Shown: positions 2,120-47,682, numbered from the whole stretch's first letter. The stretch: 59,500 nt of DNA, filler included, from Sphacelaria rigidula (GCA_964200075.2; 5 parts of 5 records of this genome joined end to end with filler, not necessarily neighbours in it); one strand, 5' to 3'. Notes: generated from the letters alone by a model not told the origin. Translations and numbers: made by a program.

Positions 2120-10717
<8,598 letters not shown>

Positions 10718-11821: not shown

Positions 11822-11921
11822 NNNNNNNNNNNNNNNNNNNNNNNNNNNNNNNNNNNNNNNNNNNNTTAATTAATTAANNNNNNNNNNNNNNNNNNNNNNN
11901 NNNNNNNNNNNNNNNNNNNNN
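11822..11921. other. Artificial spacer (N44-TTAATTAATTAA-N44)
   Basis: 100 bp with stops in all six frames; the identical spacer recurs every ~11,920 bp. Confidence 0.97.
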
Positions 11922-14631: not shown

Positions 14632-16645
14632 AGGTGCATCACCAAGGGCTGCTCCGAGCCGCCATATCACGGTTCACAGGGCTACACGGGGGAGACCTGC
14701 TCCCAACATGCGACGGCAAGAGGGGTGACTGTTAAGAACAAGTGCGTTAACGAGAGCTGTTCCTACAGGCCGTCTCAAGGAGTAGCTGGAGGCAAGAAGG
14801 CGGAGTTCTGCTCTTAGCACACCAGGGCGGGCATGGTGAATGTGGTAAAGAAGAGGTGCGGCGACGAGGGCTGCTCAAAGCGTCCGTCGTATGGTGTAGT
14901 AGGAAGCAAGAAGGCGGAGTTCTGCTTTCAGCACGCCAGGGCGGGGATGGTGGACGTGAAAAGCAAGAAGTGTGGCTACGAGGGCTGCTCCACGAGGCCG
15001 TATTTTGGTGTGGTTGGGAGCAAGAGGGCGGAGTTCTGCTTTAAACACGCCAGGGCGGGGATGATGGATGTTTTGAACAAGAAGTGTGGCTTCGAGGGCT
15101 GCTCAAATCATCCGTCGTATGGTGTAGTAGGGAGCAAGAAGCCGGAGTTCTGCTCCAAGCACGCCAGGGCAGGGATGGTGAACGTGAAAAGCAAGAAGTG
15201 TGGCTACGAGGGCTGCTCAAAGCAGGCGTATTATGGTGTAGTAGGAAGCAAGAAGGCGGAATTCTGCTACAAGCACGCCAGGCTGGGGATGGCGAATGTT
15301 GTAAACAAGAAGTGCGGCTACGAGGGCTGCTCCACGAAGCCGTCTTATGGTGTAGTAGGAAGCAAGAAGCCCGAGTTCTGCTCCAAGCACGCTAGGGCAG
15401 GGATGGTGGACGTGATAAACAAGAAGTGTAGCTACGAGGGCTGCTTCACGAAGCCGTATCATGGTGTAGTAGGAAGCAAGAAGGCGGAGTTCTGCTCCAA
15501 GCACGCTAGGGCGGGGATGGTGGACGTGATAAGCAAGAAGTGTAGCTACGAGGGCTGCTCCACGAAGCCGTCTTATGGTGTAGTAGGAAGCAAGAAGCCC
15601 GAGTTCTGCTCCAAGCACGCTAGGGCGGGGATGGTGAACGTGATAAGCAAAACGTGTAACTACAAGGGCTGCTCCACGAAGCCGTGTTATGGTGTAGTAG
15701 GAAGCAAGCAGGCGGAGTTCTGCTCCAAGCACGCTAGGGCGGGGATGGTGGACGTGATACACGAGAAGTGTAATTACAAGGGCTGCTTCACGAAGCCGTG
15801 TTATGGTGTAGTAGGAAGCAAGAAGGCGGAGTTCTGCTCCAAGCACGCTAGGGCGGGGATGGTGGACGTGATAAACAAGAAGTGTAGCTACGAGGGCTGC
15901 TCCACGAAGCCGTCTTATGGTGTAGTAGGAAGCAAGAAGCCCGAGTTCTGCTCCAAGCACGCTAGGGCGGGGATGGTGAACGTGAAGAGCAAGAAGTGTA
16001 GCTACGAAGGCTGCTCCACGAAGCCGTCTTATGGTGTAGCAGGAAGCAAGAAGGCAGAGTTCTGCTCCAAGCACGCTAGGGCGGGGATGGTGGACGTGAT
16101 AAACAAGAAGTGTAACTACGAGGGCTGCTCAAAGCGGGCGTGTCATGGTGTGGTAGGAAGCAAGAAGGCGGAGTTCTGCTCCAAGCATGTCAAGGCGGGG
16201 ATGGTGAACGTGCGAGTTAGTATGTGCGGCTGCGAGGGCTGCTCGACTCAGGCGTCTTGCGGTGTAGTGGGAAGCAAGAAGGCGGAGTTCTGCTTTGAGG
16301 ATGCCATGGCGGGCATGGTTAATGTTGTGAACAAAAGTTGCGGCTACGTGGGCTGCTCCACTAAGACGCCTTATGGTTTAGTGGGGAACGAGGCGGAGTT
16401 CTGCTCCAAGCATGCCAGGACGAAAGTGGTGGATGTGGTAAACAAGAACTACAGCAATGAGGGATGCTCCAACAGGCGGTCGTACGGTGTCGCGGGCAGC
16501 GCAAAGGCAGAGTCCTGCTCTGAGCATGCCAGGGCGGGAATGGTGAATATGGGGAGCAAAAGGTGCAGTGAAGTGGGGTTCTCCAAATGGCTTATCCGCA
16601 AGAAGCACAACGTTGATGAGGCGACGTTTTGCCGAGAACACGCCA
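14632..16645 (+). repeat. 114-bp coding tandem array (~18 units)
   Basis: GAGTTCTGCTCCAAGCACGCTAGGGCGGGGATGGTG recurs every 114 bp. Confidence 0.95.
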
Positions 16646-17217
16646 CTGCACGCAACACAGCTGCGGTGTCTGATACGGCGAAGCTCAACACTGCGGAGAG
16701 CGCCCCCGGCCGTGGCCCGACGGAGACCAGTGGAGGAAACGTTGTTCATCTACGAGGAACGAAACGAAATCACGCGGCATTCTCGGGTCCTGTTGCAAAC
16801 GACTTTGTTGGTGCTCGCCGCAATGCCGATGTCGGTCCCACGCAGGGTGTAAGAACACCATTGCTCTGGGGATGCCCAGTTTCAAGGACTGGTGGAGAGG
16901 TGACTTTTGGGACAAAAGCAGGAGTAGGGATGAAGGTGGAGGTGGCAGTCCCTTCTCCTACTCACGGTGGCGATGGGATGAGGGGGTATCGTAAGTTTTC
17001 TGCCTCTTCGAGCAGTTGGAGAAGCGAGCGTGGTGGTAGTGGCTTTGTCAGCGGTGATGGTGAAAGTAATGGTCAGATCTGTAGTTCCTCGGCAGTGGTA
17101 CTTGGACGCCTGGGCGAACTTGATGATGTGATTTCTGAAGAGGCAAAACAGGATTCGAACGTGAAGGTGGAGCTAGGAGTGTCCGGTTCGAATCTTCCGG
17201 CGTTCGAAGCATGGTAG
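14833..17217 (+). CDS. EsV-1-7 domain (C-x4-C-x16-C-x2-H) tandem-repeat protein, 794-aa ORF with 16 repeats; two further degenerate repeats lie upstream in frame (14581-14832) behind a TAG at 14815
   Basis: 38-aa unit KKCxYEGCxxxPxYGVVGSKKAEFCSKHARAGMVDVxx, matching the cysteine-rich EsV-1-7 repeat known from Ectocarpus IMM-family and phaeovirus proteins. Confidence 0.88.
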   Translation: MVNVVKKRCGDEGCSKRPSYGVVGSKKAEFCFQHARAGMVDVKSKKCGYEGCSTRPYFGVVGSKRAEFCFKHARAGMMDVLNKKCGFEGCSNHPSYGVVGSKKPEFCSKHARAGMVNVKSKKCGYEGCSKQAYYGVVGSKKAEFCYKHARLGMANVVNKKCGYEGCSTKPSYGVVGSKKPEFCSKHARAGMVDVINKKCSYEGCFTKPYHGVVGSKKAEFCSKHARAGMVDVISKKCSYEGCSTKPSYGVVGSKKPEFCSKHARAGMVNVISKTCNYKGCSTKPCYGVVGSKQAEFCSKHARAGMVDVIHEKCNYKGCFTKPCYGVVGSKKAEFCSKHARAGMVDVINKKCSYEGCSTKPSYGVVGSKKPEFCSKHARAGMVNVKSKKCSYEGCSTKPSYGVAGSKKAEFCSKHARAGMVDVINKKCNYEGCSKRACHGVVGSKKAEFCSKHVKAGMVNVRVSMCGCEGCSTQASCGVVGSKKAEFCFEDAMAGMVNVVNKSCGYVGCSTKTPYGLVGNEAEFCSKHARTKVVDVVNKNYSNEGCSNRRSYGVAGSAKAESCSEHARAGMVNMGSKRCSEVGFSKWLIRKKHNVDEATFCREHATARNTAAVSDTAKLNTAESAPGRGPTETSGGNVVHLRGTKRNHAAFSGPVANDFVGARRNADVGPTQGVRTPLLWGCPVSRTGGEVTFGTKAGVGMKVEVAVPSPTHGGDGMRGYRKFSASSSSWRSERGGSGFVSGDGESNGQICSSSAVVLGRLGELDDVISEEAKQDSNVKVELGVSGSNLPAFEAW

Positions 17218-17851
17218 GTGGCACCATTTCTTTTACCGGCGCCTTTGCTCAGATTAACCTAGAAGGGTGATGGTGTGTGCTCGCGTATGTTGTCAGCAGT
17301 CTCAAACGACGGTTGGTCGACAAGATTTGTCTTCTTCCAGGGGTGCAAAGCAGGTCGTGAGGCTGCAGGTTCTGATATTCCAGCGCCACGTTCCACCAGA
17401 TTCTCGTCGAGGCGCAGTTTTCATACTTGCATCGACCGTGTGCTTGGGTGACAATTTGCCAAAAGCTGACCGCAAGTAGATGGATCGTAGTAGTCGGCCA
17501 CCCGATGAACCATGACACCACTGTTTGACTTGTGATTCGTACTTTACCCCAACGTTTTTTTACTTGTGCAGCACGTACTGCCACGCTTGTCCATCCTACG
17601 ATAGAATCTGTACCACGAACAAAAACGCGTACGGCGATTTTGTTCTGTCAGACCACGACTCCAGAGAGTTCCAGTTGCCCCAGTATGGGTATGGCGTATT
17701 CACACCTCAGGCGCGCTGTGGTTTTAGCCGCGTACGTCATGTCTGTAGCACGGGATCATACATATCGGGGATGTATTTTTTCTATCGACACTTTCTACGA
17801 TAGCCCCCCCACCCAAACCAGCACAAAAGTGTCCCGAACAAATTGGCCATA

Positions 17852-18751
17852 CAGGCTGAGCCACCCAAGAAGCGGACTTACCTTCAGCCGGTTCCAACTG
17901 ATGATCTATCGCGAGTTGTGCCCACTATGACACATCGTGGTAATCTACAAATCAATGTGTGCCTTTCACTTCACGTAGCACTGCGATCTGACAAAGTTCC
18001 CATCGAACGAAATACCAAACTGCAGTCGGCTGCGAAGTGTAGAGAGTTGAGGGTGGCATGTGCGGCGGAACTAGGAGGAAAAAACGGCTGAACTCGCATT
18101 TACGGTTACAGTCAGTTGTGCCGCGACCGCAAAGTGATGGTACTACACTAGTTGTGGTTGTACAACAAGGCATGTCGTACTGTAGGCGCGCAGTGTCTGA
18201 GATGGCACGCAGACGAAACCTTCAGCGCGCCAAGGCTTCGCGCTTGTAGAAAACGTCAAAGTTCCGACTGAGGTTATTGTACCCTCGAAGCAAGTGAACC
18301 GGTTCTCGGTAGAAAAGGGTGATTTCACTCCTCAATGTGAAGTTGCTTTTCATGAAATATTGACACGGTATAAATGGGGTATACGTGAAGTCCATACCGT
18401 TTATCCCCTCCTTCTCCCTTTTTGTCCTCGTATGTTATTGGTGATCTAAATTTCGAAACATTTTTTTCTGGTGCAAAAGCGTCGACAACTCATTTAAAAA
18501 ACAAAAATGTCAAGGGGGGACGATAAGGAATTCAAAACATACCTCATGCGCATCGTGTCGGAATTTCGTGAAAAAATACCTAAAATTCAACAGCATAACC
18601 GCGTTTCATTTTTTCGTGGCTGGTCCACCTCCACATAGGAAGCAGTCTCGGACACGATTACGCAATTCAACAGCTGAGTTTCAGGTCGTTTTCAATGAAA
18701 TTGTGACACGATGTACATGATGTATGTGCGAAGTAGCCACCTTCTCCCCTC

Positions 18752-19015: not shown

Positions 19016-21851
19016 TACAGCGTTTGATGTTTGGGTCCAGGCTGCATGAAGCGTCTCATATTGGCAGCATTAGCGAAAACGAACCCAAGCGTGGGAATTC
19101 CCAGCTGCTCGTTGTGCTCGGCTTTTTTCATTTCGATTTACGTGAAGATTTTGCCTCCCAAACCATGTTGGGGAGGGGCTATCGTAGAAAATGTTTGTCA
19201 AGGATGAGATATCCGGAGAATTTTATCTTCGTATCCACATCAGATCTTCGAATATGGATCCATTTATCTACTTGCTGGTGGCTTTTGACAACTACTACAT
19301 GCCATACAGATTTGGATTCCCTTAACCGACCGGTTACGGTCCAAGGTGAAGTACGAGCTGGTCCAGCCAAGAGTAGGTGTGAATCTTGCTCAGGCGACGC
19401 ACGGCGCGATATTAGGAGTTGGGCGCTGATGGTTTACAGCATCTTGCTATGATCGAAATGCAGATCACGTGAGCAGCAGAGGGAAAAAGGAAAAAAAGAA
19501 GGTGAAGGTATTTGTGTCGGATATACCTCTTTACCGTAACATATCAGAGACTGATATCACACGTGTATAAAGAGCCAGAGCAAGTAGGTACAAGTGGGAA
19601 CGGTCCGCATGAACCAGATTCCCGAGGACTCTGTAATGCCAACGGAACTAGGCAACTCGGGGTGATGCCAGAAAGAGCCTAATATTCAGGACGGTCCAAC
19701 ATCCCCGAGGAACTGGTCGCCTCCAGCGACCACTGTGTCTGACCCAACTTCTTGCCTACATGTCACAAGAGGGAATCATCCTCAGCTTCGGAGTTCCTTC
19801 GGCATCAGGATGACATCTCTTGGGGCAGCCGCTTCCTTAGTCTGTCCCCCCTTTGGATACGTCCTCCTTACATTGGCGACACCAGGATATAACTCAAGTA
19901 GACATCTAGTAGTAGGGCACACGTCTTTCACCATGCCGAGAAAGAAATCCGCCCACAAAAAATCCACCAGAACAACTTCTCGGGGAAGGGTCACTGCGAA
20001 GACCGTCGAGCATCCAACCGCGGCCGTCATGCCATCAACTTCCACCTCGGCGGCGAAAGCGGCAGAGTCCAGAGGCGCAGCGAAACCAGTAGTACCTGCG
20101 CCGGCCGACACAAGCCTGCCCGCTCAACCTTCGTATAGCCACGAGGGGGAAAGCGACAGCGACAACACTGACGACTCTGAGCGGAGCACCGATATCCGTC
20201 AAGTGTCCACCGGTAGGCTTGATGCGCTACGCGACCCCACCAAGCTATCCTCATCCTCTACACCAACCCCTACGCCACAACCCACCATCAAGGAAAAGGC
20301 AGCAGAGCTCGCATATAGGGCGTTGGAGAGAAGCGACGAGGAGGGTACGGAGCCAGCTCCGTGGGTAATGCAAGCTTTGGGGTTTTCGGTACCGCAAGAG
20401 CAGGGAGTTTCACAGGTGTCGAAATCGAGCAACCCAGTAGCATCGGAAATAGAGCATCTAAGTAATAATACGATGCTACAAAACAATACAAGTAAACCCC
20501 AGGATCATGTCAATGATCCAGTCGATAATGTCAAGGTCGAATTGCCTAACACTACGCCGATCCAATCCACAGAGAGCTCAGGGACTTTGACGTTAGATCC
20601 GCCAACAAGCCTCACTGACGTATAAGGAAACAGCCACAACGTAAAGCCTCTGTCTAGTTCAGTGCTGACTCCGCCATCTACAAGCCATAGTAACACCATG
20701 AGAACAAAACATTTTCGATGAAACAATCGGACCTCCCATCAACGTTAATCCTAGAAGGAAAATGGAGTGAGGACGTGCCAGCAATAATTCTCCATGCGTT
20801 TCTCAATCGAGTTAGGATACATGCCCCTGACGATTGCACAGAATCCACAGTACAACGGCACGCCATAAAGCACTCACCACGTATCCTCAGAGGGTCAGCA
20901 GAAAAGTTATACATCCCTCTCGGAAGCGGAAACGTAGAGTGGCGCCCACTACCTGTACTGCAAGACCTCAAATCGAGAGGAAAATATACCGCACCCATTG
21001 CCCCGAAAACGTGGACAGAATGGGTAGCGGCCTACACCCATCGCTTCTCAAACCAACTAGCACCGTTAGCCCGTGGGATAGCCGATCTGAAGCAGGAAAA
21101 AGGTCAGAACATAGACGACTATGCACTGGAAGGTACGACTTCGATGGACACATTCGCGACCGAGGCCTTGCGGGTGAAATTTCCTGGCCACGACACGCTT
21201 CGCATTATAATAGACGTGATCACAACAGCAGCATTTGAGACCGGGCTTAAACCCCATATCAGAGTTGAAATGGTGAGAGAAGATAGTACGCTCGACTTCC
21301 AAACTGCGACAGCGTGAGCGAAAAAACACGAACAAAACAATCTCCGCACATGGCCAAGCCTAACCGGAGACACTCCCCATGTCTCGGCCGCAACCGTAAA
21401 TTCCCCACGTCCACAGCTAGCAGAAATGATCGCCGATCATGGCGCAATCCTTACGGACCTTCAGTCGCAGTTATAAACGATTAATGGAGAGAGAGGGAGA
21501 GCGGAGAAACGGTCTGCTAGCATAGACAGGAGCGCGAGTAAATCAGGGGGAGAGTTGAAAAACGTACGCTTCAAGGATAGTAATGGTAAGAATACATCCA
21601 ATGACAAGTAGTTGAGCGGTAAAACGAAGCAATCAGCCCGTTGTGAATACGCATCATGCAGGTACAAGAACACACACGAGACAGAAGATTGCCGCCTTAT
21701 GCAGAGCCATGTAGAGTCTGCAAAAACGTACAACCCGTGAAGACGCCCAAGAGAGGACCCCTCGTCTGATCAGGGCAGAAACGGCAAATCCTTACGTAGA
21801 AAATCGAGGGAAACAGGAGGACGCGAAATCGTCAACCCTCTGGCTCGTAAG

Positions 21852-23133: not shown

Positions 23134-23676
23134 TTGGGCTATTGTACGTTAGAGGAAGCACGCTTTCCGCTCAAACCTGGGACTCAGCCGGTAGACCGAG
23201 CGTCATGTAGAGCAAACCCCAGAGTGCAAGACGCAATCGACAAATGCGTCGACCAGATGAAAGAAGATGGTATAGTCGAACAACGCCCAAGCCCGTGGGG
23301 ATCAGCGGTTACAATAGTCGTAAAAGCAGACGGAACAGCACGATTATACGCAGATTATCGAGCAACGATAAATACAAACTTGATTAGCAAATCATGGCCC
23401 ATGCCAGCTGTGGAAAGTCACATAGATACAGTAGCGAGGGCAAGAATAATGACAGTTTGCGATGTACAAAGTGCGTTCCACCAGATACCAGAGGTAGAAA
23501 GCAAAAAAGAGAAAACAGCGTTTGTAACTCGAAGAGAGAAATGGGTGTTCAACCGGTTACCATTTGGTTTAGCGTGTTCACCCTTTATCTTCTCACGCAT
23601 AATGACACTAGCATTTGCACACTTCGGACCCAAGAGTGGCTTACTAATGTATATGGATGACATAATTTACAAGTAG
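23134..23676 (+). pseudogene. Gypsy reverse transcriptase fragment
   Basis: SPWGS, CDVQSAFHQI, KTAF, RLPFGL, YMDD. Confidence 0.92.
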
Positions 23677-23742: not shown

Positions 23743-23842
23743 NNNNNNNNNNNNNNNNNNNNNNNNNNNNNNNNNNNNNNNNNNNNTTAATTAATTAANN
23801 NNNNNNNNNNNNNNNNNNNNNNNNNNNNNNNNNNNNNNNNNN
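23743..23842. other. Artificial spacer
   Basis: N44-TTAATTAATTAA-N44. Confidence 0.97.
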
Positions 23843-34296: not shown

Positions 34297-34567
34297 GACA
34301 CTTTCTACGATAGCCCCCCCGGAGCAACAAATAAGTACGCCCTCCCCTTCCAGCCCAAAGCTGTCCCGAAATAAATAGTCATACAGCGCCTGATGTTTAT
34401 ACTCAGGCTGGATGAAGCCCCTCATACGGGCGATATCGGCGAAAACGATCCCAAGCGTGGGAATTCTCAGCTGCTCGTCGTGTTCGGCTCTTTTCATTCC
34501 GACTTACGTGCAGATTGCGCCTCCCCAAACCAGCCATTTTTCAGGGGAGGCTATCGTAGAGAATGTC
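34297..34567. mobile_element. GAC...GTC MITE, 271 bp, 4-bp TSD TGCT
   Basis: TGCT|GACACTTTCTACGATAGCCC ... GGCTATCGTAGAGAATGTC|TGCT. Confidence 0.85.
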
Positions 34568-35343
34568 TGCTCCAGGAATTGACAGGCCAATGCATCCCAA
34601 TATCTGACCGTAGCGATGAAAGCCTGAAGCAAGCCCATTTATTTCACCGTTTTTTTTATCTAACCTGTACCTGAATCTGTACCTATTTCTGAACGTCGAC
34701 CGTTGAGCTGGTGGTGGCGGAAATTGTACCTGTTTTTGGCGATTTACGTTAACGAAAGGTTGAGCCTGCCCTATATTACACGGCCCAACCCAAACCCTGT
34801 CAGAAAACCGAACCTCGATTGATCCCTGTGCACCCTAGTGTGGAAATTTGGCCCCTTTGAAAACTATGGAAATATATGCGTCAGGTCGGTAGTACATTCC
34901 TCAGTTCCGACACAACGCTCCCCCCCCCCCCTGACCATATGAAGATATGTTACGTAGTGACCAAGGTGAGGCATGACAGTGAAAAACTGTGCGAGTACTG
35001 CACCCGAAAACTTTGTGCGGGTCCAAATTTGGGGGGGGTGGGGGGGAGGGGGCAGGGAGAGAACCCTCAATCCTGGTATTTAGGCTCCCGGAGAGGTAGC
35101 CAGATTTCTGTGGAGTGAAATTGCTTCACATGTTGAGAGGTGTTGGTGGACTCGGAGCGAGGGTGTGCATTGTTCTTTCGAGAAATTGGGTACGAATTGA
35201 TCGCGAGTCAGGAAGATTGAACTGATGTGGTGATTGCAAAACACCGGCGAGGCCGCGGGGGTTTGGAAGAGATTAGCTCACGTAATCAGTCTATTATGTA
35301 CCGTTGGTCACTCACACCTACCGCTGCTTGCAAGGATATGAAT

Positions 35344-35662: not shown

Positions 35663-35762
35663 NNNNNNNNNNNNNNNNNNNNNNNNNNNNNNNNNNNNNN
35701 NNNNNNTTAATTAATTAANNNNNNNNNNNNNNNNNNNNNNNNNNNNNNNNNNNNNNNNNNNN
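35663..35762. other. Artificial spacer
   Basis: N44-TTAATTAATTAA-N44. Confidence 0.97.
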
Positions 35763-38700
35763 CTCAGTTGTCAGCCTTTACAACACCTCACCATTATCAT
35801 GGAGTGAAAAATCTCCAGCCTTGCATCATCTGGCCTGGGCTACACAGCAAGCGTCATCATCTACAGGATGCCCTTGTCCCCTGGTCATCATCCAGGATCC
35901 AATATATACTCAACCGTTACGGCGTGATTTCGCCACAGACCACACGAGGATAGTTTGGGCGGCACAATATAAAGACGGGGAATCCCCGGTGTACGCGCAC
36001 CTAGGCGTAGAGGGACGCCAGGCGACAGTGCACGGCATTGTAGCGAGCCAGAACGCATGCCCGCGCGACTGCATCGATGACCTTCAGGTTGAAGGGAGGC
36101 GCTAACTCCATATCTGGGACACCCGCTCGGAAAAGTAAGTGTGGAGGGCCTTCGAAGACACCGAGAGACCTCATCCTGGTGAAGTTAAGCTTGTGCATGA
36201 ACTGTTTCATACCAACGCTGATCTGGGCCGGCCCCGCAGGCCGGATCTCAAACGACCGTGGCGACGTTATGCCAACGATGGGAAACACGCGACCGCTGTC
36301 TATCAGGGCCCCTTTGAAGTTGACCAAGGAGCGGAGAGTGGTGGTGTAGACGGGCAGGCCCGTGTACGCGGCACTGAAGGCCTCTGCCTGCTGTTATCTC
36401 GTGAACAGGCAAAAACCCTTACAGTGTACGGCGATTCTGTTAAACAATCGTAATTAAGTACCAAAAGTGGTTGTCAATGACATACTTCCACCTATACACT
36501 AACCCTTCGGTGTCAAAAGTAACTCGTGACATCGAGATATGTTTGGACACTCATGTACTGTGCAACCATATCTTCTTACCCCTGTGAGAGTCGTACTGAT
36601 ACCGTACATAATTTGGCATCGGAAAAGACCACCCGCGTATCGGCATTATTTGCAGGACTTACTCCGGGATTTTATTTCGAATTTTTTAATTGGTTGGAAG
36701 CTCGTCCATGAATTATGTTATTTGATGACATAGAATTCGTTCAACAGGAAGAGTGAAGTTTTGCGAATACGAACCTAACCACAGTCTCGGTCCTCAATAT
36801 TTCTACATAGGTTGGGAGTTACAGCCGATTCCCAGCCCAATTACCAAGGTTAATTACCGCGGTAAATTACTAAGGTTTACTGAGTGATCCCACGGTAGGG
36901 GTGCACAAAATATTGCTACCGTTTGAATTTGTAGGAGGCCTCCATCTCATTAGGGTTAGGATTAGGGTTAGGGTCAGGACCTAACTCTAGGACGAGCGAG
37001 GCCATACATCGCAGCCGAATGATCCAGTCGTTTTCTTTATTTCGAAAATATGCATTGCTGTCGGAGGTCCCCAGCGTTCACCCCCAATAACACAGTCTAG
37101 CCGCAGTTTCTGCGGTGAAAAACATATACGATGTGGGTTACACACGCTCTCGGTGCTCTGTCGCAACAATTCATCCCTACGTGTGCCATACGTGCGTACT
37201 GCCTGCGTTGATACCAAACACATCGCGGGGATTTGGGTCTGTCGTCCAATTGGCAACTCCGCAAGACTTCCCCAGGCGCAAAACTCTTGTAAACCTTCAC
37301 TCGGTGTTCAGGCACAGACTGGTCCGCCGCGAGGTGTTGTGTTGTGTGTGGTGTGCGGTTGTGCGGTATTACTCCCCGGTTGTGCGATACCGATCTTCGA
37401 TTTTGACGCACAATTCTTTGTACACACCTCGAGAAGACCTGGTCGATCATGATGTGGGTATGTCCAACTATCATGAAGTTGACCTCAACCCGTCCGATTA
37501 CGCCTCGAGCAACCAGAGAACCCAGGTACGTTAAGACGATATGGTTCTTGTTCTCGCCAACGCAGTTGTCGAATTGGGCGAACAGTTCGCCAATGTACGC
37601 TAGGGTGCCGTCGCTGCAGTGCGTGTCGAACAGTCGCGTCAGTGCCTGGTGAATGGAGATACATATACGATTGCTACCTGCGAAACAAGTACACGGCAAA
37701 GTGGTGGCGGGATGGCGGGACGGGCAGTGTGCGATGTTCGTTAGGTTTGTGGAAGAAATGTTGTGGTAGACTGTGGTGCAGTGTGCTATACCGAACCACG
37801 CGCCTCGGCGGTAGACGTACCGAGCGAATAGACTAGGGCAGACGAAGAGTTACTCACTTCGAATTGGGTGGGCGGCGGTACTACGCTAAAAGAAAATCGA
37901 CATGGGAACGAATCATGCCGACGATCGCCTCACGGTATAATTCGGCGACTGCATAACACGAGCACCGTACTCTAACTCACCGCCGCCGACGGCCTGAGGT
38001 GCCAGGAAGAAATCCACGAACTGTCCCTCCACGAGAACTGCCATGATTTCTTGGCGTTCGGCATATCCCCTGTCAGTCACCACATCGCGCATCGTGCATA
38101 ACCGTGGAGTCGTATCAGACACGATACAGTCTACATCGACGTCGACGCACGCGCGAGCGAGTATACACCAGCGCCATGACTGTGGGTGTACGCGAGTGTT
38201 GGAGGCGCTAACCAAAGGGGGACACCGTCGAATGCACGGTCAATCGTCGTTCGTACTCACTTGTCTGTGCCGTGCGTCACTGAAGAGTACATAGGTAGAG
38301 CGAACACCGTTTGGGTTGCTGCATCGGCTTGTAGAGACACGAACTTCAAAGGCTCCTGATTGGCCTTCGCTCGAATGGCAGCCTGACTGATGAAAGCGAG
38401 GCGCTGACGGTCTAGAGTCATCAACTGTAACGGTCGAGGGGATGTGCGCGTCGTAAGATTGATGAGGAATATCTCGAGCTTTGTATCTACCAGTGGGATA
38501 AACCATGCGCCTCAAGCCGTGGTCCCATGAGAGACGAACTCGGTATTGAAGGAAGCACAGAACCACCCGCTCAGGAGGCGTGAAGTAACCATAAATATTG
38601 AAAACACAAACATAGCTAATAAATTCAGATCAACATACACACTGTGCCTCCAAGGAGGGACGTTATCGAGATGAATCAACCTACACCACAATAAACGAAA

Positions 38701-39689
38701 CCAATCCGAAATAACGAACTAAAAATAAGCCAGGTGAATGATAAGAGAAATGGTCGGCTGTTGATACGCGGCTCGGGCGGAGAGTTTCCGCCAAGACCAC
38801 GTGTAACTGGGCAACGCTACTCGACCGCATGGACCTGGGAAACTCGAATGGAGAGGCACTCGCGACCTACGATGCTGTGATGCAATGAGCCGAGGTCGCA
38901 TAGGGAGATGGAAATTCACTCGACAAAATTTCGATGCGTACTCGCGTCGAAACATTTCATATCGACGGGTCGCTACAGGTACGAGCTGAGGAAATATAAT
39001 GGTCGGGAAATATCCTCCCCTTGACTGATTCGGTACACCTGCGGCTGCCTTGGATGCTATCAGTGGCGGAATCTCACAAGTTGCGTATCCTCGTTTTTCC
39101 GGTGACCTGACAAGCTGCCGACAATTTCGACGAGAAGACGACTCACATGCAAGTGCGCCTTCTGCTCCATAGCGACCTCCTCCATCTTGCCGGGGTCAGC
39201 GGTGACCCTCACACCAGAACGTCCATTAAGGGTGTCGTGGTACAGAGTGCACGCGTTACACTTCATGAATGTGCCGCCGACCTTGGCCTTGTAGTGGGGT
39301 CGGTCCTTGCGCATCGTGGTGTAAAAATAGCTAAGAATCGCGGCCACCCCCCATCCTGTACTACGCATATCCTTCACGAACGCATCGTACACTCCCTGTC
39401 ATTGAGGATGTAAGGTGGTCGCGTGTTTCGAGGGATCGTGCGCAGGAAATGGAGCCCGCAACGCCGGATAGTTACGCTATACGGTGAGGAAAATGTGCGC
39501 GCGCATGAAGTTGTTAGTGCAACATCAGCGTGCGCATGAAGCCAAACAACGAGCACACAAGCGCGATGCGCTGCGTCCTGGACGCGGCGCGTATATCTGT
39601 ACTGTCATCCACCGCATTGCCTCTTTCTGCGACGCTATTCGCAGGGGGGATGGATCCGACTGTTGAACTGAATCAGATAAGACCCGGTA

Positions 39690-40090
39690 TTGAGAATTGG
39701 GGATGGATATTTTATTGAGGTTGAGCCTTGGGAACCTTCGTAGGCATCACTACATTTCCGCAATACAAAAATTCTTCCCTCTCCGATTGTGCCGTGTGGC
39801 GTGGCTACTCCTGAACAACAGTTCGTCTGCAATTTGTGAAGTCCTGTACTTACACGGGACAAGTTAATCCTCCGGCTCTTCCTGTATTTTACACTGCTCT
39901 TGTATTCCAGAATCCCCTGAAAAACACGGGATTTTACAAATGACCGGCGTTTTCTCCCATGATGAGCGACGCCACACATTACAGCCGGAGAGTGCATTTG
40001 TAATTTTATTCCGAAAACATTTCGATGCTTGTGGCGGTTCCCAAGGTTATTCCTCCATAAAAACTTCGCTCAATTTCCGAAATCGCGTGC
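39690..40090. mobile_element. Degenerate fold-back element in a transposase intron
   Basis: CCTTGGGAACC...GCATC...AATACAAAATT versus AATTTTATT...GATGC...GGTTCCCAAGG. Confidence 0.55.
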
Positions 40091-40582
40091 TAGATGCGCT
40101 AAGGGGTAGTCGATGGTCCAGCAATTTGAATTGGAATCGAAGACTATGAACACCGTCGGGGATCGAAGTGTTCCAGGCTCGTACCTCTAGCCCGACAAAA
40201 ACACAAATCAAAACGATATCTTCCAACTGCTTCGTTGAACGTTTTGGCAAAAAACAAACAAACGAAACTAAAATAAGCCGCGGTTTACCGTGAGTGATAC
40301 CGCGAGAGCCCCCCCCCACCCAACCCATCCACCCACCCACCCACACACACACCCACATATCAGTCCAAAAGCGCGACCGAAACAATGGCTGGACAAGCGC
40401 GACCAACGTTTTACCCACCTGTTTGTTTCTCATGCAGAAGTATGTAGCATTCTGGTGCGGAATGTGTTGCCCGTACATCTCTGCGTATCTGTCGAGGAAC
40501 GCGAGGATTTTGTTTCGGTGAACAGGATCCCTGCCGTCGCGTGGTCCACCGTCGCCCCTGATAAAGCACACGTGACACGATC

Positions 40583-41028
40583 TTCGTGAGACTTCGAGGG
40601 TAGTTCCAGATTCAGATTGAGACCCGAAACAATCGACTTTCCCGTCGATTTTGACATCGCCACAGTTCGAGGAGTAATGCGCCCAGCTGGTGAAGCGGTG
40701 GCTTCAATGAAAGCTGTCACCTACACGATGAATTTGACACAAAATCACTTGATCGCAACTACGTAGTCAGTCCATTGCAACAAAAGATCCCGTCTTTCAG
40801 GAAAACTCGATTAGTGCCTGAAACAGTTTCAGTTCCGAAATGCCCCCCTGGCGTAAAAATGCTTCGTGCAGTGTCTCACCAACCAGACCGCCGAAATCCT
40901 CAAATGGGGTACTGTACGGTAGCTGCATGCACAGCACGTGTGCTCAAGCAAAAAAAAGGAGAACGATTCCTGTTAGAAACGCGAGAGCATCCACTCTGAA
41001 TCTGAATCTACCCTCTGAATCTCACGAA
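40583..41028. mobile_element. TIR-bounded MITE in a transposase intron
   Basis: TTCGTGAGACTTCGAGGGTAGTTCCAGATTCAGA / TCTGAATCTGAATCTACCCTCTGAATCTCACGAA. Confidence 0.6.
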
Positions 41029-42369
41029 TAGGGTCTCTCGAGCGCATCACGGTGAGAAACCCTATTGAGCAATAATATTTTGGCCTTCGCCTCTTATGCG
41101 GGCCTAAGGCTTCGCATAATTCCGATTTTTGCGCGTAAATTCTGCGTTTCTCAAGACGCATATTTTTGGTTGTGAAACGCATAGTGGGCATATCATGCGC
41201 ATCAATTGCGCATATAGCCTGTGCGCCGCCTGCGCCCACTGTGCAGATGCCCTTAGATGTGTTCCATGTGTCTATGTGGCATGACAAAGCCGCATGTAGA
41301 CTGGGTTGGACCATGTCATGTTCGAGAGTCAGAATCATTCTTTCGTCATAAACCACACGCCTTTTTTTTTCACATGTAAATGTAGGACATATGTATAGAC
41401 AACAGTACAGAAAAGTCCTTGAACGGTTTTTGAGCCCGCTGTCAAGTGCATGCAAAGTCAGTACAGTATGTAACAGTATGTCTTCGACGAGCACCTTTCA
41501 GTTTTCGTAGTTACATGCACGCTGCTGATGTCTCTGCTTCGTGTTTCACAACAACACTACAGACAGTGTGAAGCTATGCTGGCAACGCAAGAAGGGTCAG
41601 GTAGACCCGAAAGACTGCGAGCAGAGTCTTTACTTCCGAAAACAAATGGTTGACTGCTTGAGCTCTCCGGCTGTTCGTTGAACCCCCCCTGCCCTCTGGA
41701 AATCCGTGAGTGTTCCTGGACTGTCAGCCGGTGAAATTATTCCGAGGCGGATCTCGACCGCAAAATAATAGAATTGGTTACAGTAATCGATTTCAAGATT
41801 TAAACTTGTACCGGTTGTTCCTGGATGCGCCCTCACGAGTTTACACCCGTCCGAGGCCTACTGCGGACCAATCCAGTCACACATGTTGAGTGTTTTCGCT
41901 GGGTACGACGGCGAGAAACAGTGAGCCGGTATGTGTCGGCCGACGCTACAGTAAATCACGGTCACAGCAGCCTGTGGTAGCATACATTTTCGGTCTATTT
42001 TGACGTCGAGCTTGCCTAGTACAGTACTGCTGTACGTTGTGTGAAATCTACATATTATGTTCGCTTTGCTACACGACAGTGGGAGGTTCAAATCTGCCCA
42101 AACTTGGCGAAGAGATATAAGATATTTACGGGGTTCTCGATACCAATGGAGCACCCGGGTTCTTCTTGGCGTTCTCAACGAGGTTCTTCGACACACCAAA
42201 CGCTCTTGTGAAAAACTGATTACACACGACGCCGTCAGAACCATGTATTGACGCCATATTTTTCCCGGGTTTCTGATACGGCACGTACACTCGAACCCAA
42301 GCCAGTCTTGCTTTGCGCGCGACGATACGACGGAGGTCCTCTTGCTCCGACGCCAACCTCTGAGCACCA

Positions 42370-44984
42370 CACACGTGGACAGATAGCATCCTGTGGGGCG
42401 CACTGTGCAGGGTCTGTACAGGGTCCTCCACAGTCTCTGTGGAAAACTCCCTGACAGTGACATGCAAAATCTGTACCCATCGCAGCGTTTTGATAGGGTT
42501 TTCCCCAGGGTTGGGTTTGCAGCCCTGTGTAGGCACGTCGGCAAAGCCCTGCACAGTCATGTGGTAGTGTTTTTGTGAAAAAAACTCAATTTGTTTTCGA
42601 AAATTCCAAATATTTTGGTACAAAACCTGTAATTTTATATATCTTCAATACCTTGTCCTCCTGTCCGAGGTAAATTCCTCTTCACCCGATTTGAGTCGAG
42701 CGAAAAGGAATTTATTTTGGACAGCATGTCAAGCTAGATCCAAAACAGATCCTTTTCTCGCCCAATTAATTTCGGCAAAGAAAATGATTTATTTAGAACA
42801 GCAGAAGAAGCTGTTCAAGATCGATCCTTTTTTCGCTCATTTTTGAGATGAGCGAAAAAGGATATATTTCGAATAGCTCATTTTGCTGCGCAAATCCCAT
42901 GCACACTGGCAGATTCGGAACTTGACCGGCAGAAGAAGCTCGAAATAAATATTTACTTTTCCCTCGAATTCATCCAGAGATTGGGGGGAAAAGAAATTTA
43001 TGGCGAGCAGCGTCAGCTGCTGGGCAAATCCCGCATACTGCATCGTCACCGGCGCATGGGATCCAACACGCAGAAAAAGTTGCTGAAAGTTTTTCATGTT
43101 TTTCCCCCCGAGTCCATGTGTACATGGGCTAAAGGATGAATAGCTCTCAACCGCTTTCGCTGAACAGAAATCCCACACGTTGGATACGCGGGTATGTCCA
43201 CACCTGTGCTTCATGTGAAGCCCCTGGAAGGTGGCAAGATACCGACTGATCGGGTATACCTCGTCAATATATTTACATTTTCCCCAAAACCCCGTCTTCC
43301 GTCGTATACTAACACGAACCATGTTTAAAAAATATCACTTAATCAATCGTATATGTGTGTATGTTGTCGTCCCATTTATTCTGGGCGCCAGTCACCCCTT
43401 TCGGGATATATACCACCACAACCCCGCAGCAAAGAGTATGGGTTGGGCACAGGGATAAAGACACATACACACTGCCGTGCGGCGGGTGGATATATGATGT
43501 ATTTATCGTTGGTGGAAACTTGAGCACCTACTTCTTTCATGGTCGCGACATCGCGCCGTGACGACATACGCGGGGTGCGTATATACAGGCACGGGTGCGA
43601 AGTACAATAATCAACCGGCCGCCTATGGTATGCATATACACACTCACCATCATATGCATGCTGCGGATCGCGGACGCACCGCGATATAACATACTGTAAT
43701 AGTGCAGCATACAGGCCGCGCGTACGATATACTGCACGTTGTTCAAGTTCTTTTCACGTCGCACTGTAGGTAGAGAACATACATATACACATTGTCCTGC
43801 GCTGTCTGTACTGTATACTTTTCCCCTTGCCTTTCACGCCCAACTTACTGTGCTGCAGCAGCTGTGCTCGCAAATATATGATGTGGAACGGGCGTGAAAA
43901 ACTGGAGTTCGTGACGGTATATAACACCCGCCCCATATATCAACATAAGCTGCAGGCATCTATACATTGTACTCATAGCCACCCATCTGCAGTACATGGC
44001 GCCGCACGTATAAGCACGGCGGTATAGCGCACTGTCCCGCATGCAATGGTATTGTACAGTCCAGTATAGTTTATTGTTGTGAATATATATCCCGATTACG
44101 CAGTATGCGATAAGATCGATGTTTCATTATCCCCTGTATATTGTGTTAGTTTCGTCGACGCGGGACTATGGGGTTTTCATCAGGTGTATGCATCTATCAG
44201 CGAGGTCAATTGCTATCTGTCATCATGACATTAGCTGCAACAAAAGCTTGCGTGCAGGAAATAGGACTTGCACAGCTGAAGCTGCTCGCGAGCAAGTTCT
44301 TTCTCCACCCAATTTCAGGTGTTCTTGGTGGTGTACAGATTCCATCTGCGATATACAGTGTATACGGGATTGTCTGTATAGCTGAAGCTCTTGGAAATGA
44401 ATCCTTTCTCAACTCTATCCCAAGTTTGGAATTAGGATATATTTCGAACAGCAGCGGCTGTCCAAATTTCAGATTTCCATCACACTTGTGCCTCTAAAAA
44501 CAATTCGGGGGATTTCAGTGTTATTGACACGGACCTTCGAGGGCCGCCCCAAAATTCAGAAGTACAAAGAACTTGAACAATCCTTAACGACTACCACGCG
44601 TAGCTCCGTGTGTAAACCAGAGATGGTACAACGACAAAGGTCCGGAATCGATTCCCTGTCCAACCGAATCAGTTCTTTTTTCCGCCAGTACCTTGCGCCC
44701 GCAGCTGCATGTGAAGGGTAGTGTTTGTGCGTAAACACACTGCACAGCATTCCCAGCAGCGATGAATTCTTCACGGGGCGACGGAACCCTGTGATACACA
44801 CTATTCATGACCACTGTAGAGGAACCCTGTGATGCACACTACTCATGACCACTGTAGGGAAACGCTGTGGAGCGTCCTGTGCTACGCTGGAAAACACTGC
44901 ACAGTAAAATTCCCGCAAGAAACACTGCGCAGGGTACGTAAACCCTGTAGACCCCCTCCACAGGGTGCTATCTGTCCACGTGTG
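42370..44984. mobile_element. 2.6-kb CACTA/CMC-like non-autonomous element, perfect 19-bp TIR, 2-bp TSD (CA)
   Basis: CA|CACACGTGGACAGATAGCA ... TGCTATCTGTCCACGTGTG|CA; subterminal 38-bp tandem repeat at 44783/44821; excision restores the host reading frame. Confidence 0.88.
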
Positions 44985-45786
44985 CAAGCGTTCCTTCAAC
45001 GAACCGTTCAACACACCGTAGACTGCGGCAGCACTCGAAACTCGATGCAAGCATATCTTGCAGCGCAATAGGCTATGTGGAGAGAGTTGCACCCGCCACC
45101 GGAACGATCGACTCGAGGGGGGATTGCTCTTGCCTTTTTTTTGGAGTCAAGCCGCCCGTATGCTCACATGATTCGATGCTCCGCTCTGTGGGTACAACCG
45201 AGGTCGCGAACAGGAGGCGGCACGCCCCTGTAATAAGCATAAACGCACGCCCCACACTAATTCCTCTGGTGATTGAGTGTTTGAGAGTAGGCGATGCCAG
45301 TACGTTTGTGACAGCATGGGCAGGGTGGTCATGTTTGGACAGCAACGACGACGTTGGCGTTCTTCCACGTTCAGATCTATCTTTCCGACACCACCTATCA
45401 ACATGCCCTGACCGTCAGAATCTCGCGACAAATATCCTGTGGTCCTGTGTACAACTGACCGTGTGCACCCGAAGCGTGATCAGAGAATGGGACACATGTC
45501 GACAAGAATCGGGATCTTTAGATCTTTTCACCTGCCTGACTGGTGGGATTGTTTCAGTGGTATGCCACCTGACACGCGGCAAGTGGGTCACCATTCTACC
45601 GAACGTGGAGCTCGTAAGAAAGACACCGTCGTACTAGATACTGAGAAAGATATTATCGAAGAATATGGCTTATTAGTACTCATGCGAGACTGGTATGACC
45701 CAGATACGTTGTCGAATTTCGAGTGCAGGTGGCGTTGTGGGTAAAGGTAGGTAACGTGTGCCGATTGTGACCTGCAACTTACCGCG

Positions 45787-46208
45787 ATATAACAGAGGAT
45801 TCTATATAATGAGGTTCATCAATGAAAGGAGGTTCGAGCTCAAAACAGTACTTTTTCCAAGCTTTCAGCGATGGTGCCCAACGACTTTCTTGTCGGCCTA
45901 ATGCCCCTCGATCGCGTAGATATTCTTCAGCGCATTTTATCGACCCTGTGAGCTTACAGCGCTGTCCGAAACCGCCATTTCTACTTATTTTTTAGAAGTA
46001 GTGATATCAGGGGAAACAGCGGTTTTGGTCAGCGCTGTAAGCTTACTGAGTCGGTAAAATGCGCTGAAAACGTATCCACGCGATCGAGGGGCATTAGGCC
46101 GAAAACAAAGTCATCGGGCACCATCGCTGAAAGGGTGGAGAAAGTACTGTTTTGGGCTCGAACCTCATTTAATTGATGAACCTCATTTTATAGAATCCTC
46201 TATTATAT
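45787..46208. mobile_element. ~420-bp fold-back MITE with ~190-bp inverted arms
   Basis: ATATAACAGAGGATTCTATATAATGAGGTTCATCAAT ... ATTGATGAACCTCATTTTATAGAATCCTCTATTATAT. Confidence 0.88.
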
Positions 46209-46338
46209 GTTCTCGCCGTCCCTCGCTCTACCCCCCCCCCCCCCCCCCCCCCCCTCTCCTTTACACAACCCACTACACTGCCGCCCGCAGCCTGCACACC
46301 ACAACAGTCAAGAAGCAGGCAACCGTTGTTTCAGCCCA

Positions 46339-46750
46339 ATGGATTCCCCTGATGTCAGAAGTCAGCCGTCAGGTACAGTAGCGCCAGTACAGCAGAACAT
46401 GGAATCCCTTCTAACCCGCCACTACGTAGGTACGTTTCCGATAAAGTTATCTCAAATCGCCATGACGTCCCTCACCCGCGAGCTGAACCCTCGTGGAGTG
46501 GAGAAGGTCATCCCTTCGTTGAAGTCAAAGGGGTGGCTCACGCACAATCCGCCAGCCATAGTGATGCCACATGAAGGTGTCCCGGAGGATGGAGGAATAA
46601 CGTCGGAGTTTCTCTCGACGTGTCAGTTTCGCGTCTTGGACGGAAATCATCGGATATCCGCGGCGAGGTCGATTTTCGAGAAAGATCACTGCGTGCCGTG
46701 TCGAGTGCACCATGAATTCGGGCCAGAGGTCATGCGAATCCTTGGAGACG
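46339..46750 (+). CDS. ParB/Sulfiredoxin-like N-terminal domain protein, first coding exon
   Basis: RELNPRGVEKVIPSLKSKGWL...PAIV...FRVLDGNHRISAAR...VPCRV (ParB Box I/II-like, DGxHR); ends at canonical G|GTGAGT donor. Confidence 0.72.
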
Positions 46751-47196
46751 GTGAGTCACAATATTGACCTATGGCATTGTCTATAGCCACGTGCCTCCGC
46801 AATCGTTTCGAAAGCGTTGAACTATCTGATGCAAGATAAAAACTTGTCGCACGCCCTAGTGTTTAAAAAATGCCAGCATAATGATTGAGTCATCCAATTT
46901 AAGTATGCAAAAAAAAATGTGTCGGGGTTGAGCGTGAACGCTGAGCATGAGGATGACAACCCCGTCCTCCGCCTGTCCCGGCCAGGGATGTCACGACTGA
47001 TGTCATTGGGGGGGGGGGGTGTTGTGGCTGCACACTAGTTTAGCGCCAGAAATTCAGGCTCGGCCTCTAACACGGCTTGTCCGCGGGTCTATGGTCCAAA
47101 CGACGGTTCGCGCATGCCTGAGGCGTAGACCTTGGATCCTTGGCTACTTTTCCTCGCGTTTTTCGGGTACTGTTTTCATGCTTTCCGCCTCTTTTC

Positions 47197-47445
47197 GACA
47201 CTTTCTACGATAGCCCCCCCCCAAAACCAGCCCCAAAGTGTCACGAAATAAATGGCCATACAGCGCCTGATCTCCGGGTTCAAGCTGCATGAAGCGCCTC
47301 ATACTCGCAACATTAGCGAGAACGAACCCAAGCGTGGGAATTCCCAGCTACTCGTTGTGCTTGGCTTTTTCTATTTCGATTTACGTGTAGATTTTGCCTC
47401 CCCAAAACCATCCACTTTCTTGGGGGGGCTATCGTAGAAAGTGTC
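47197..47445. mobile_element. GAC...GTC MITE, 249 bp
   Basis: Perfect TIR GACACTTTCTACGATAGCCCCCC; flanks TTTC/TTTT. Confidence 0.85.
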
Positions 47446-47582
47446 TTTTTTTCGTTTTCAGCGCATTTTTTGTTCTGTTTTTACGCCTTTTTTTTTTTTT
47501 GCAGTTGCTTTCGAATTTTGTCACATTATGCACTCCCGCCCCTCCCCCCCCCCCGACTTGGGGGGGGGTGGGGGGGGGGAGG

Positions 47583-47682
47583 NNNNNNNNNNNNNNNNNN
47601 NNNNNNNNNNNNNNNNNNNNNNNNNNTTAATTAATTAANNNNNNNNNNNNNNNNNNNNNNNNNNNNNNNNNNNNNNNNNNNN
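47583..47682. other. Artificial spacer
   Basis: N44-TTAATTAATTAA-N44. Confidence 0.97.

Follow-up and report, generated by a model that had tools for sequence, protein, structure and literature searches.

The genome of the brown alga Ectocarpus contains giant KDZ, EnSpm and Sola-1 transposons that bear nested insertions and additional transcribed genes and whose transposases are frequently pseudogenised (PMC12477816, Genome Biol 2025). Among these elements, Sola1-1_Ec32 measures 21.5 kb, has imperfect terminal inverted repeats (TIRs) of 282 bp and a 4-bp target duplication, is annotated in 1,989 copies or fragments, and carries an opposite-strand gene for a 1104-aa protein with ParB-like and DNA methyltransferase parts that is labelled 'Ectocarpus specific' in the family table of that paper (PMC12477816). 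Here we analysed a window of 59,500 nucleotides from the brown alga Sphacelaria rigidula (GCA_964200075.2), the window being the whole stretch of DNA under study, in which a spliced transposase gene of the DUF7869 family lies head-to-head with a ParB-like gene. The part of the window that holds both genes (35763-47582) can be interpreted, with a probability of about 0.72, as the interior of one copy of a high-copy, transcribed family of giant cut-and-paste transposons with a divergently oriented DUF7869 transposase and a ParB/sulfiredoxin (Srx) accessory gene.

Related arrangements exist outside the brown algae. KDZ transposons of fungi reportedly carry TET/JBP genes, and as a concept the locus described here resembles them in being a probable giant cut-and-paste element with a putative DNA-modification accessory gene, although the transposase family and the enzyme class are different and the hosts there are fungi. 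In the red alga Bostrychia, a Plavaka element (EnSpm/CACTA-type) encodes PAG3, in which an N-terminal ParB-like domain is joined to a 2-oxoglutarate (2OG) oxygenase; PAG3 was proposed to bind and modify its own element, and tandem inverted-repeat arrays adjoin it (10.1101/2025.02.11.637652). Like PAG3, the accessory protein of the S. rigidula locus has a ParB-like N-terminal domain and is proposed to bind and modify its own element, whereas the transposase here is of another superfamily, the partner domain of PAG3 is a 2OG-dependent oxygenase and not a methyltransferase, and the inverted repeat beside the ParB-like gene here is a high-copy foldback miniature inverted-repeat transposable element (MITE) rather than an array of the kind found beside PAG3.

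Sola1-1_Ec32 is the closest comparison, and the two share a brown-algal host, many copies, nested insertions, a pseudogenised transposase and an accessory gene with a ParB-like domain on the strand opposite the transposase. Two further links lead to Ectocarpus: a 610-aa protein of that alga is 54% identical to the transposase over 333 aa, and the ParB-like family has Ectocarpales members, one of them with a methyltransferase-like C-terminus according to a language-model lead. Unlike Sola1-1_Ec32, the present locus belongs to a different, distantly related brown alga and its nearest proteins are from Sphacelaria rigidula; its ends, and with them the 4-bp target duplication and long terminal repeats, were not seen in the block, nor was a methyltransferase part, and the identity of its transposase with that of Sola1-1_Ec32 is presumed. 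The architecture is thus of a known kind, the same pairing having been published for Ectocarpus in 2025.

The divergent gene pair and the structure of the transposase gene

The 59.5 kb window consists of five blocks of approximately 11.8 kb joined by filler (Table 1), and features from separate blocks need not be adjacent in the genome. Both genes lie wholly within the fourth block, 35763-47582, and their adjacency is therefore real. The initial annotation, made from the sequence alone, had described a minus-strand gene of at least seven exons with a divergent exon about 1 kb from its 5' region, and each of these statements agreed with our gene models: the transposase has seven coding exons and at least one 5' untranslated region (UTR) exon, and the ATG of the divergent ParB-like gene lies 1,023 bp from that UTR exon.

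The minus-strand open reading frame (ORF) at 37097-37849, which contains coding exon 6, matched Pfam DUF7869 (PF25273), the domain family that had been suggested for it, at 78.3 bits (E 7.4e-22, profile positions 51-138 of 192) and so exceeded the gathering cut-off of 26 bits. The exon model was guided by tblastn matches of the relatives P0124 and P0126 and by splice sites. It comprises seven coding exons from 42257 to 36001 on the minus strand, with GT-AG boundaries at all introns and 1455 nt in frame (484 codons), and its spliced product is colinear with residues 1-333 of the Ectocarpus protein P0126 at 54% identity without gaps (E 8e-120). A short telomere-like run of CCCTAA-type repeats was seen at 36945-36990, in intron 6.

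Two of the introns were fixed independently of this model, because the joints 38068/38260 (CT..AC on the plus strand, that is GT..AG on the minus strand) and 38425/39148 were found in contigs of three probable RNA runs, X6 and X8 among them, and were absent from the DNA run X1. Runs X6-X9 are classed as RNA by guess, none of them being on record as RNA. At the 5' side of the gene, a 423-nt contig of X8, also present in X6, joins 45315-45133 through 33 letters to 42369-42164. These 33 letters match 45018-44985 and contain an in-frame stop, which makes the ATG at 42257 the most likely start of coding. Contigs of X6 and X8 also join approximately 42132 to 40563 with 21 extra letters, which assigns them to a sister copy, and the contigs with the joint 42369/45133 and its 33 letters stem from sister copies as well.

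Close relatives of the transposase were few and fragmentary, with four matches among five candidates at 60-86% identity, one of which is from Sphacelaria rigidula. A first search for longer relatives returned none among 671 candidates, and restricting the search to the core yielded a single long relative, P0126 (Ectocarpus, 610 aa, in a cluster of 11 members), which matches DUF7869 at 98.4 bits over profile positions 20-190.

Comparison with these relatives separated the protein motifs listed in the initial annotation into those that are coding and those that are not. QFDNCVGENKN and GHTHIMIDQ, given there as core motifs, lie in exons and have conserved counterparts in relatives, and the VC..F..G (VCNQFFTRAFG) and KC..C (KCNAC) motifs are likewise exonic. 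The stretch VDVD, named as the source of the first catalytic aspartate, proved to be intronic, between exons 4 and 5, and the conserved acidic residue lies instead in VSLQADAA of exon 4. The CC..C motif was not supported as part of the protein, since it falls at approximately 45020-45050, upstream of the in-frame stop in a sister-copy transcript contig, and the stretch is most likely 5' UTR or intron. Three conserved aspartates (D206, D293 and D335) lie in blocks shared with relatives and are a candidate catalytic triad. An AlphaFold2 (AF2) model of P0126, made from an alignment of 8 rows, had a mean predicted local distance difference test (pLDDT) score of 45.7 and was confident for residues 107-175 alone (helix-strand-helix-strand).

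Sola transposases are DDD enzymes that produce 4-bp target duplications, and Bao et al. in 2009 are said to have described a DDD catalytic triad for Sola1 transposases. Judged by the Ectocarpus precedent, the relative P0126 and these general features of Sola, the DUF7869 transposase probably belongs to the Sola1 superfamily.

Predicted fold and relatives of the ParB-like gene

The first coding exon of the ParB-like gene has a DGNHR motif, which we take to be equivalent to ParB box II (GERRxR) and to the GCHR of Srx. Among 60 family members, the D and G of this motif are invariant and the H and R occur in at least 90%. An AF2 model of the exon from a 60-row alignment reached a pLDDT of 85.3 and a predicted template modelling (pTM) score of 0.75. 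Foldseek returned 20 matches at E<=0.001 with this model, and those shown were all ParB-like, Noc, KorB, Srx or SbnI; the best of those shown were PadC, ParB-CDP, Noc and Srx (probability 1.00, E 8e-5 to 3e-4). A VIA alignment to ParB-CDP (6sdk_A) gave Z 10.1 with a root-mean-square deviation (rmsd) of 2.1 over 87 residues, and 28 chains had Z>=8. On the evidence of this model, the exon is clearly predicted to have the ParB/Srx fold.

The N-domain of bacterial ParB, Noc and KorB CTPase clamps and sulfiredoxin (6sdk, 7ol9, 8qa9 and 1xw4) was the nearest structural comparison, at Z 8-10 and rmsd 2.1-3.4 over 85-93 residues, and the conserved basic loop at the strand-helix turn is common to these structures and the modelled exon. 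Unlike the bacterial proteins and Srx, the algal sequence has 10-18% identity to them and no match by hidden Markov model (HMM), and its DGNHR stands where ParB presumably has GERRxR. Also unlike bacterial ParB, it has no parS, ParA partner or partition context, and its gene is nuclear, is interrupted by introns and most likely belongs to a eukaryotic transposon.

Sequence searches with this family returned little. Neither the exon nor 21 relatives gave a significant ParB match in Pfam, and sub-threshold Pfam matches among the 60 members were to GmrSD_N (2), DUF1015 (3) and DUF6551 (1). Searches of the PDB by sequence and by profile gave no significant match, the best being a chance phycocyanin, and none was significant in PHROGs and NCBIfam, where the best came from P0148 (a phage DNA methyltransferase family at E 0.056 and a ParB-like family at E 0.089). 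A scan of 2.9 million viral contigs, which reaches close relatives only, found no relative of the exon.

Exhaustive phmmer searching identified 117 ParB-like relatives, counted as representatives at 50% clustering, with 42 at E<=1e-10. The best was the 301-aa Sphacelaria rigidula protein CAM9715297.1 at 91% identity, and a second S. rigidula paralogue had 33% identity. Named members listed for the 20 clusters looked up were brown-algal in every case (7/7, across 6 clusters), namely two from Sphacelaria rigidula, three isoforms of one gene from Cladosiphon okamuranus (777-876 aa), and others from Ectocarpus and Pylaiella littoralis; one cluster at 90% held 45 members, on large contigs. Relatives are thus present in at least four brown-algal genera, which suggests that the accessory gene is not 'Ectocarpus specific'. 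In a separate case, the Ectocarpus protein P0086 (CAB1107038.1) has its ParB-like domain at the C-terminus (residues 330-429 of 431 aa) behind an N-terminal part that is transposase-like by eye and has no Pfam match, and it could reflect a chimeric gene prediction in repeat-rich sequence.

The nearest relative, P0001 of S. rigidula, aligns to an 843-aa Cladosiphon protein over 237 aa, past the ParB domain. Language-model features liken the last 284 residues of the Cladosiphon protein to N6_N4_Mtase clusters (0.92). The methyltransferase-like C-terminus of this homologue is a lead only. By homology with brown-algal relatives and with the Sola1-1_Ec32 protein, the accessory protein of the present locus would most likely extend into a helical region that binds DNA and a methyltransferase-like domain of N6A/N4C type. 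Later exons corresponding to the S. rigidula or Cladosiphon proteins were found nowhere in the 59.5 kb window.

Multi-copy state, decay and nested insertions

In the DNA run X1, 37,543 contigs matched the 11.8 kb block at >=90% identity, and near-exact contigs at the locus itself had a depth of approximately 105-125. Summed depth in X1 was 30-59 thousand in transposase exon bins, 40 thousand in the spacer bin 45219-45612, 31 thousand in the ParB exon bin and 4.7-7.9 thousand over intron bins. According to the warning of the search tool, summed depth is not copy number, and the values are taken here to show repetition of exons, introns and spacer alike, to a similar order. Both genes, together with the intervening DNA, occur in many copies in the organism; the ParB-like exon, too, is repeated in X1, and is not the single-copy host gene that the initial annotation had named as the outcome speaking against its proposal. 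The depth pattern of the ParB exon in the three RNA-like runs is also that of the transposase exons (X6 and X8 about equal and both far above X7); it is not seen in the nested repeats and is a weak hint of co-expression of the two genes.

This copy is decaying: its transposase frame is cut short by a premature stop, and three insertions are nested in the locus (Table 1). The in-frame TAA in coding exon 7 disables its transposase as read from the sequence. The largest insertion is a non-autonomous DNA transposon of 2.6 kb, for which the empty site (joint 42366/44985) was present in two contigs of X1 and one of X7 and thus exists in other copies of the host element; parts of this insert had very high depth in the DNA run. 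Because the foldback MITE accounts for 422 of the 1,023 bp between the two genes, the original divergent spacer was approximately 600 bp. The palindrome formed by this MITE was considered as a parS-like array and rejected, its TA flanks and a DNA depth about 10 times that of the gene exons marking it as a separate foldback MITE. Further copies of the CACTTTCTACGATAGCCCCCCC MITE were observed at 34297-34568, 17785-17854 and 19016-19194, so that this MITE is present in three different blocks. A run of approximately 27 C at 46229-46255 lies just upstream of the ParB-like ATG, and similar C/G runs occur at the block end (47533-47581).

Table 1. Positions of annotated features, counted from the first nucleotide of the window.
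Feature	Coordinates	Strand	Remarks
Filler separators between blocks	11822-11921, 23743-23842, 35663-35762, 47583-47682		N44-TTAATTAATTAA-N44
Transposase coding exon 7	36001..36436	-	internal in-frame stop; terminal TAG 36003-36001; tblastn P0126 residues 186-333, 49%
In-frame TAA	36394..36396	-	codon 354 of 484; Gly in Ectocarpus P0126
Transposase coding exon 6	37428..37677	-	DUF7869 core; QFDNCVGENKN (D293), GHTHIMID (D335); Pfam E 7.4e-22; four relatives at 60-86% identity
Transposase coding exon 5	37981..38069	-	GYAERQ...VGGG; tblastn P0124 91%; joint 38068/38260
Transposase coding exon 4	38261..38424	-	VSLQADAA, D206; tblastn P0124 89%, P0126 54%; joints 38425/39148 and 38068/38260
Transposase coding exon 3	39147..39395	-	KCNAC motif; ends ...KAHLH; matches start of P0124; spliced joint 38425/39148
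Transposase coding exon 2	40419..40557	-	AG/GT sites; frame kept with exons 1 and 3
Transposase coding exon 1	42130..42257	-	ATG 42257-42255; VCNQFFTRAFGVSKN motif; frame and GT donor
Nested 2.6 kb non-autonomous DNA transposon	42370..44984		27-nt TIRs (CACACGTGGACAGATAGCA...), 96% inverted repeat, apparent 2-bp CA target duplication; in 5' UTR region
Transposase 5' UTR exon	45133..45315	-	spliced contig
Foldback MITE	45787..46208		422 bp, 84% self-complementary, TA flanks (Tc1/mariner-like); in spacer upstream of ParB-like gene
ParB-like first coding exon	46339..46750	+	137 codons and 1 base; GTGAGT donor at end
DGNHR motif	46639..46653	+	strand-to-helix turn in model
MITE	47197..47445		about 250 bp, 24-nt TIRs (CACTTTCTACGATAGCCCCCCC...); in intron 1 of ParB-like gene

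The other blocks held features of their own. A plus-strand open frame of 799 aa at 14818-17214 has 15 EsV-1-7 cysteine-rich motifs (Pfam E 1.4e-219), a family characteristic of brown algae and of the giant viruses that infect them. Exons of GDP-mannose 4,6-dehydratase, an ordinary host gene, were identified on the minus strand at 5754-6158 and 8020-8484 (Pfam E 6e-21 and 3.4e-14), and a reverse transcriptase match (RVT_1, E 8.4e-14) at 23134-23673 on the plus strand marks a retroelement fragment at the end of block 2.

Competing explanations and implications

Among the alternatives, the one that survives best is that two unrelated repeats became neighbours by chance, the ParB-like gene being part of another element (for example of Plavaka/EnSpm type, as in red algae) or of a dispersed gene family. 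The region is rich in nested insertions, no second linked copy was observed, the 431-aa prediction P0086 has its ParB-like domain at the C-terminal end, behind unrelated N-terminal sequence, and ParB-like accessory genes also occur in red-algal Plavaka elements (10.1101/2025.02.11.637652). Nevertheless, the genes stand head-to-head across a spacer of approximately 600 bp of non-MITE sequence that is repeated at about the same summed depth, and the depth pattern shared by ParB and transposase exons in the RNA-like runs adds a weak hint of association. Moreover, the sole published brown-algal element known to have a ParB-like gene is a Sola-1, where the gene is on the strand opposite the transposase (PMC12477816). 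Taken together, this leaves coincidence as an unlikely account of the locus.

A domesticated host pair, in which a host gene of ParB/Srx type shares a bidirectional promoter with a gene derived from a transposase, would be in keeping with the intron-rich, spliced structure of both genes, with the existence of spliced transcripts of the family and with the intact ParB exon and its conserved DGNHR. Such a pair is very improbable, since at >=90% identity both exons and introns recur tens to hundreds of times, the transposase has an in-frame stop, and single genomes contain many diverged paralogues (S. rigidula has two, and one 90% cluster comprises 45 members). Brown-algal genomes contain viral insertions and one block of the window has an EsV-1-7 repeat ORF, yet an integrated giant virus remnant (phaeovirus-like) with ParB-like and transposase-like genes is the least credible explanation of all, because both genes have spliceosomal introns, the ParB exon had no relative among the viral contigs scanned for close relatives, no PHROG match was significant, and the EsV-1-7 ORF is in a different block whose adjacency is not implied.

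Several results weigh against the interpretation of the block as a giant transposon with an accessory gene. Element ends, TIRs and target-site duplications were not found by inverted-repeat and terminus searches within 35763-47582; Ectocarpus-type termini (AACCG/CGGTT) occurred in the block as scattered chance pentamers alone, with no matching long inverted repeat. The evidence that the two genes are linked consists of a single locus, the similarity of the summed depths and the Ectocarpus precedent, with no second two-gene copy observed directly; a search of metagenome contigs for one returned 2 loci that, at 1.3-1.5 kb, do not extend far enough to show their surroundings. Of the ParB-like gene, the block contains exon 1 alone, the remainder being beyond the block end, so that the methyltransferase domain is unproven in this gene, and Pfam detected no methyltransferase in the 843-aa Cladosiphon homologue. 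Pfam ParBc (PF02195), for which a search had been proposed in the initial annotation, matched 0 of the 60 family members at E<=0.1; the ParB/Srx signature named there thus stands as a predicted fold (Z 10.1 to 6sdk) and does not as a family recognised by HMM. On the transposase side, Foldseek with the P0126 model (pLDDT 45.7) gave no match at E<=0.001, and the RNase H-like core proposed in the initial annotation is thus putative. DUF7869 was not mentioned in the literature searched, and its assignment to Sola1 is putative as well. Finally, the contigs of X6-X8 are mostly from sister copies, and expression therefore refers to the family.

Overall, the multi-gene algal transposon pairing put forward in the initial annotation is supported by the multi-copy genes and spacer, by the predicted ParB/Srx fold and by the Ectocarpus precedent. 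Its implied novelty is not, since ParB-like accessory genes in algal giant transposons were already published (PMC12477816; 10.1101/2025.02.11.637652).

In a giant transposon of this kind, the DDD transposase supplied by intact sister copies would cut and paste the element at its terminal inverted repeats, and the present copy, if mobile, would be moved in trans by them. The accessory protein would contribute a ParB-type nucleotide-binding N-domain with its DGNHR loop, together with downstream helical and methyltransferase-like parts that would bind and possibly methylate element DNA, so that its likely role is to bind and mark the element's own DNA. A more far-reaching and doubtful proposal is that Sola1-type transposons across the brown-algal orders have had the ParB-like and methyltransferase-like gene as a lasting functional partner since before the split of Sphacelariales and Ectocarpales, its product acting as a nucleotide-dependent ParB-type clamp that loads on element DNA and directs N6-adenine or N4-cytosine self-methylation.

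In summary, the pairing of a DUF7869 transposase with a ParB-like accessory gene extends to a second, distantly related brown-algal lineage, in a family that is abundant and spliced as modelled, and the accessory gene has a predicted ParB/Srx fold with a conserved DGNHR that is invisible to current HMM and domain libraries. The locus provides a second, independent entry point to the question of whether such accessory proteins bind or methylate their own transposon. To our knowledge, brown algae have been reported to be without canonical cytosine methylation. If the self-methylation proposal were true, self-marking would control the element's own transposition or shield it from host silencing, and the element would carry a transposon-borne eukaryotic epigenetic writer, possibly a main source of DNA methylation in these algae.

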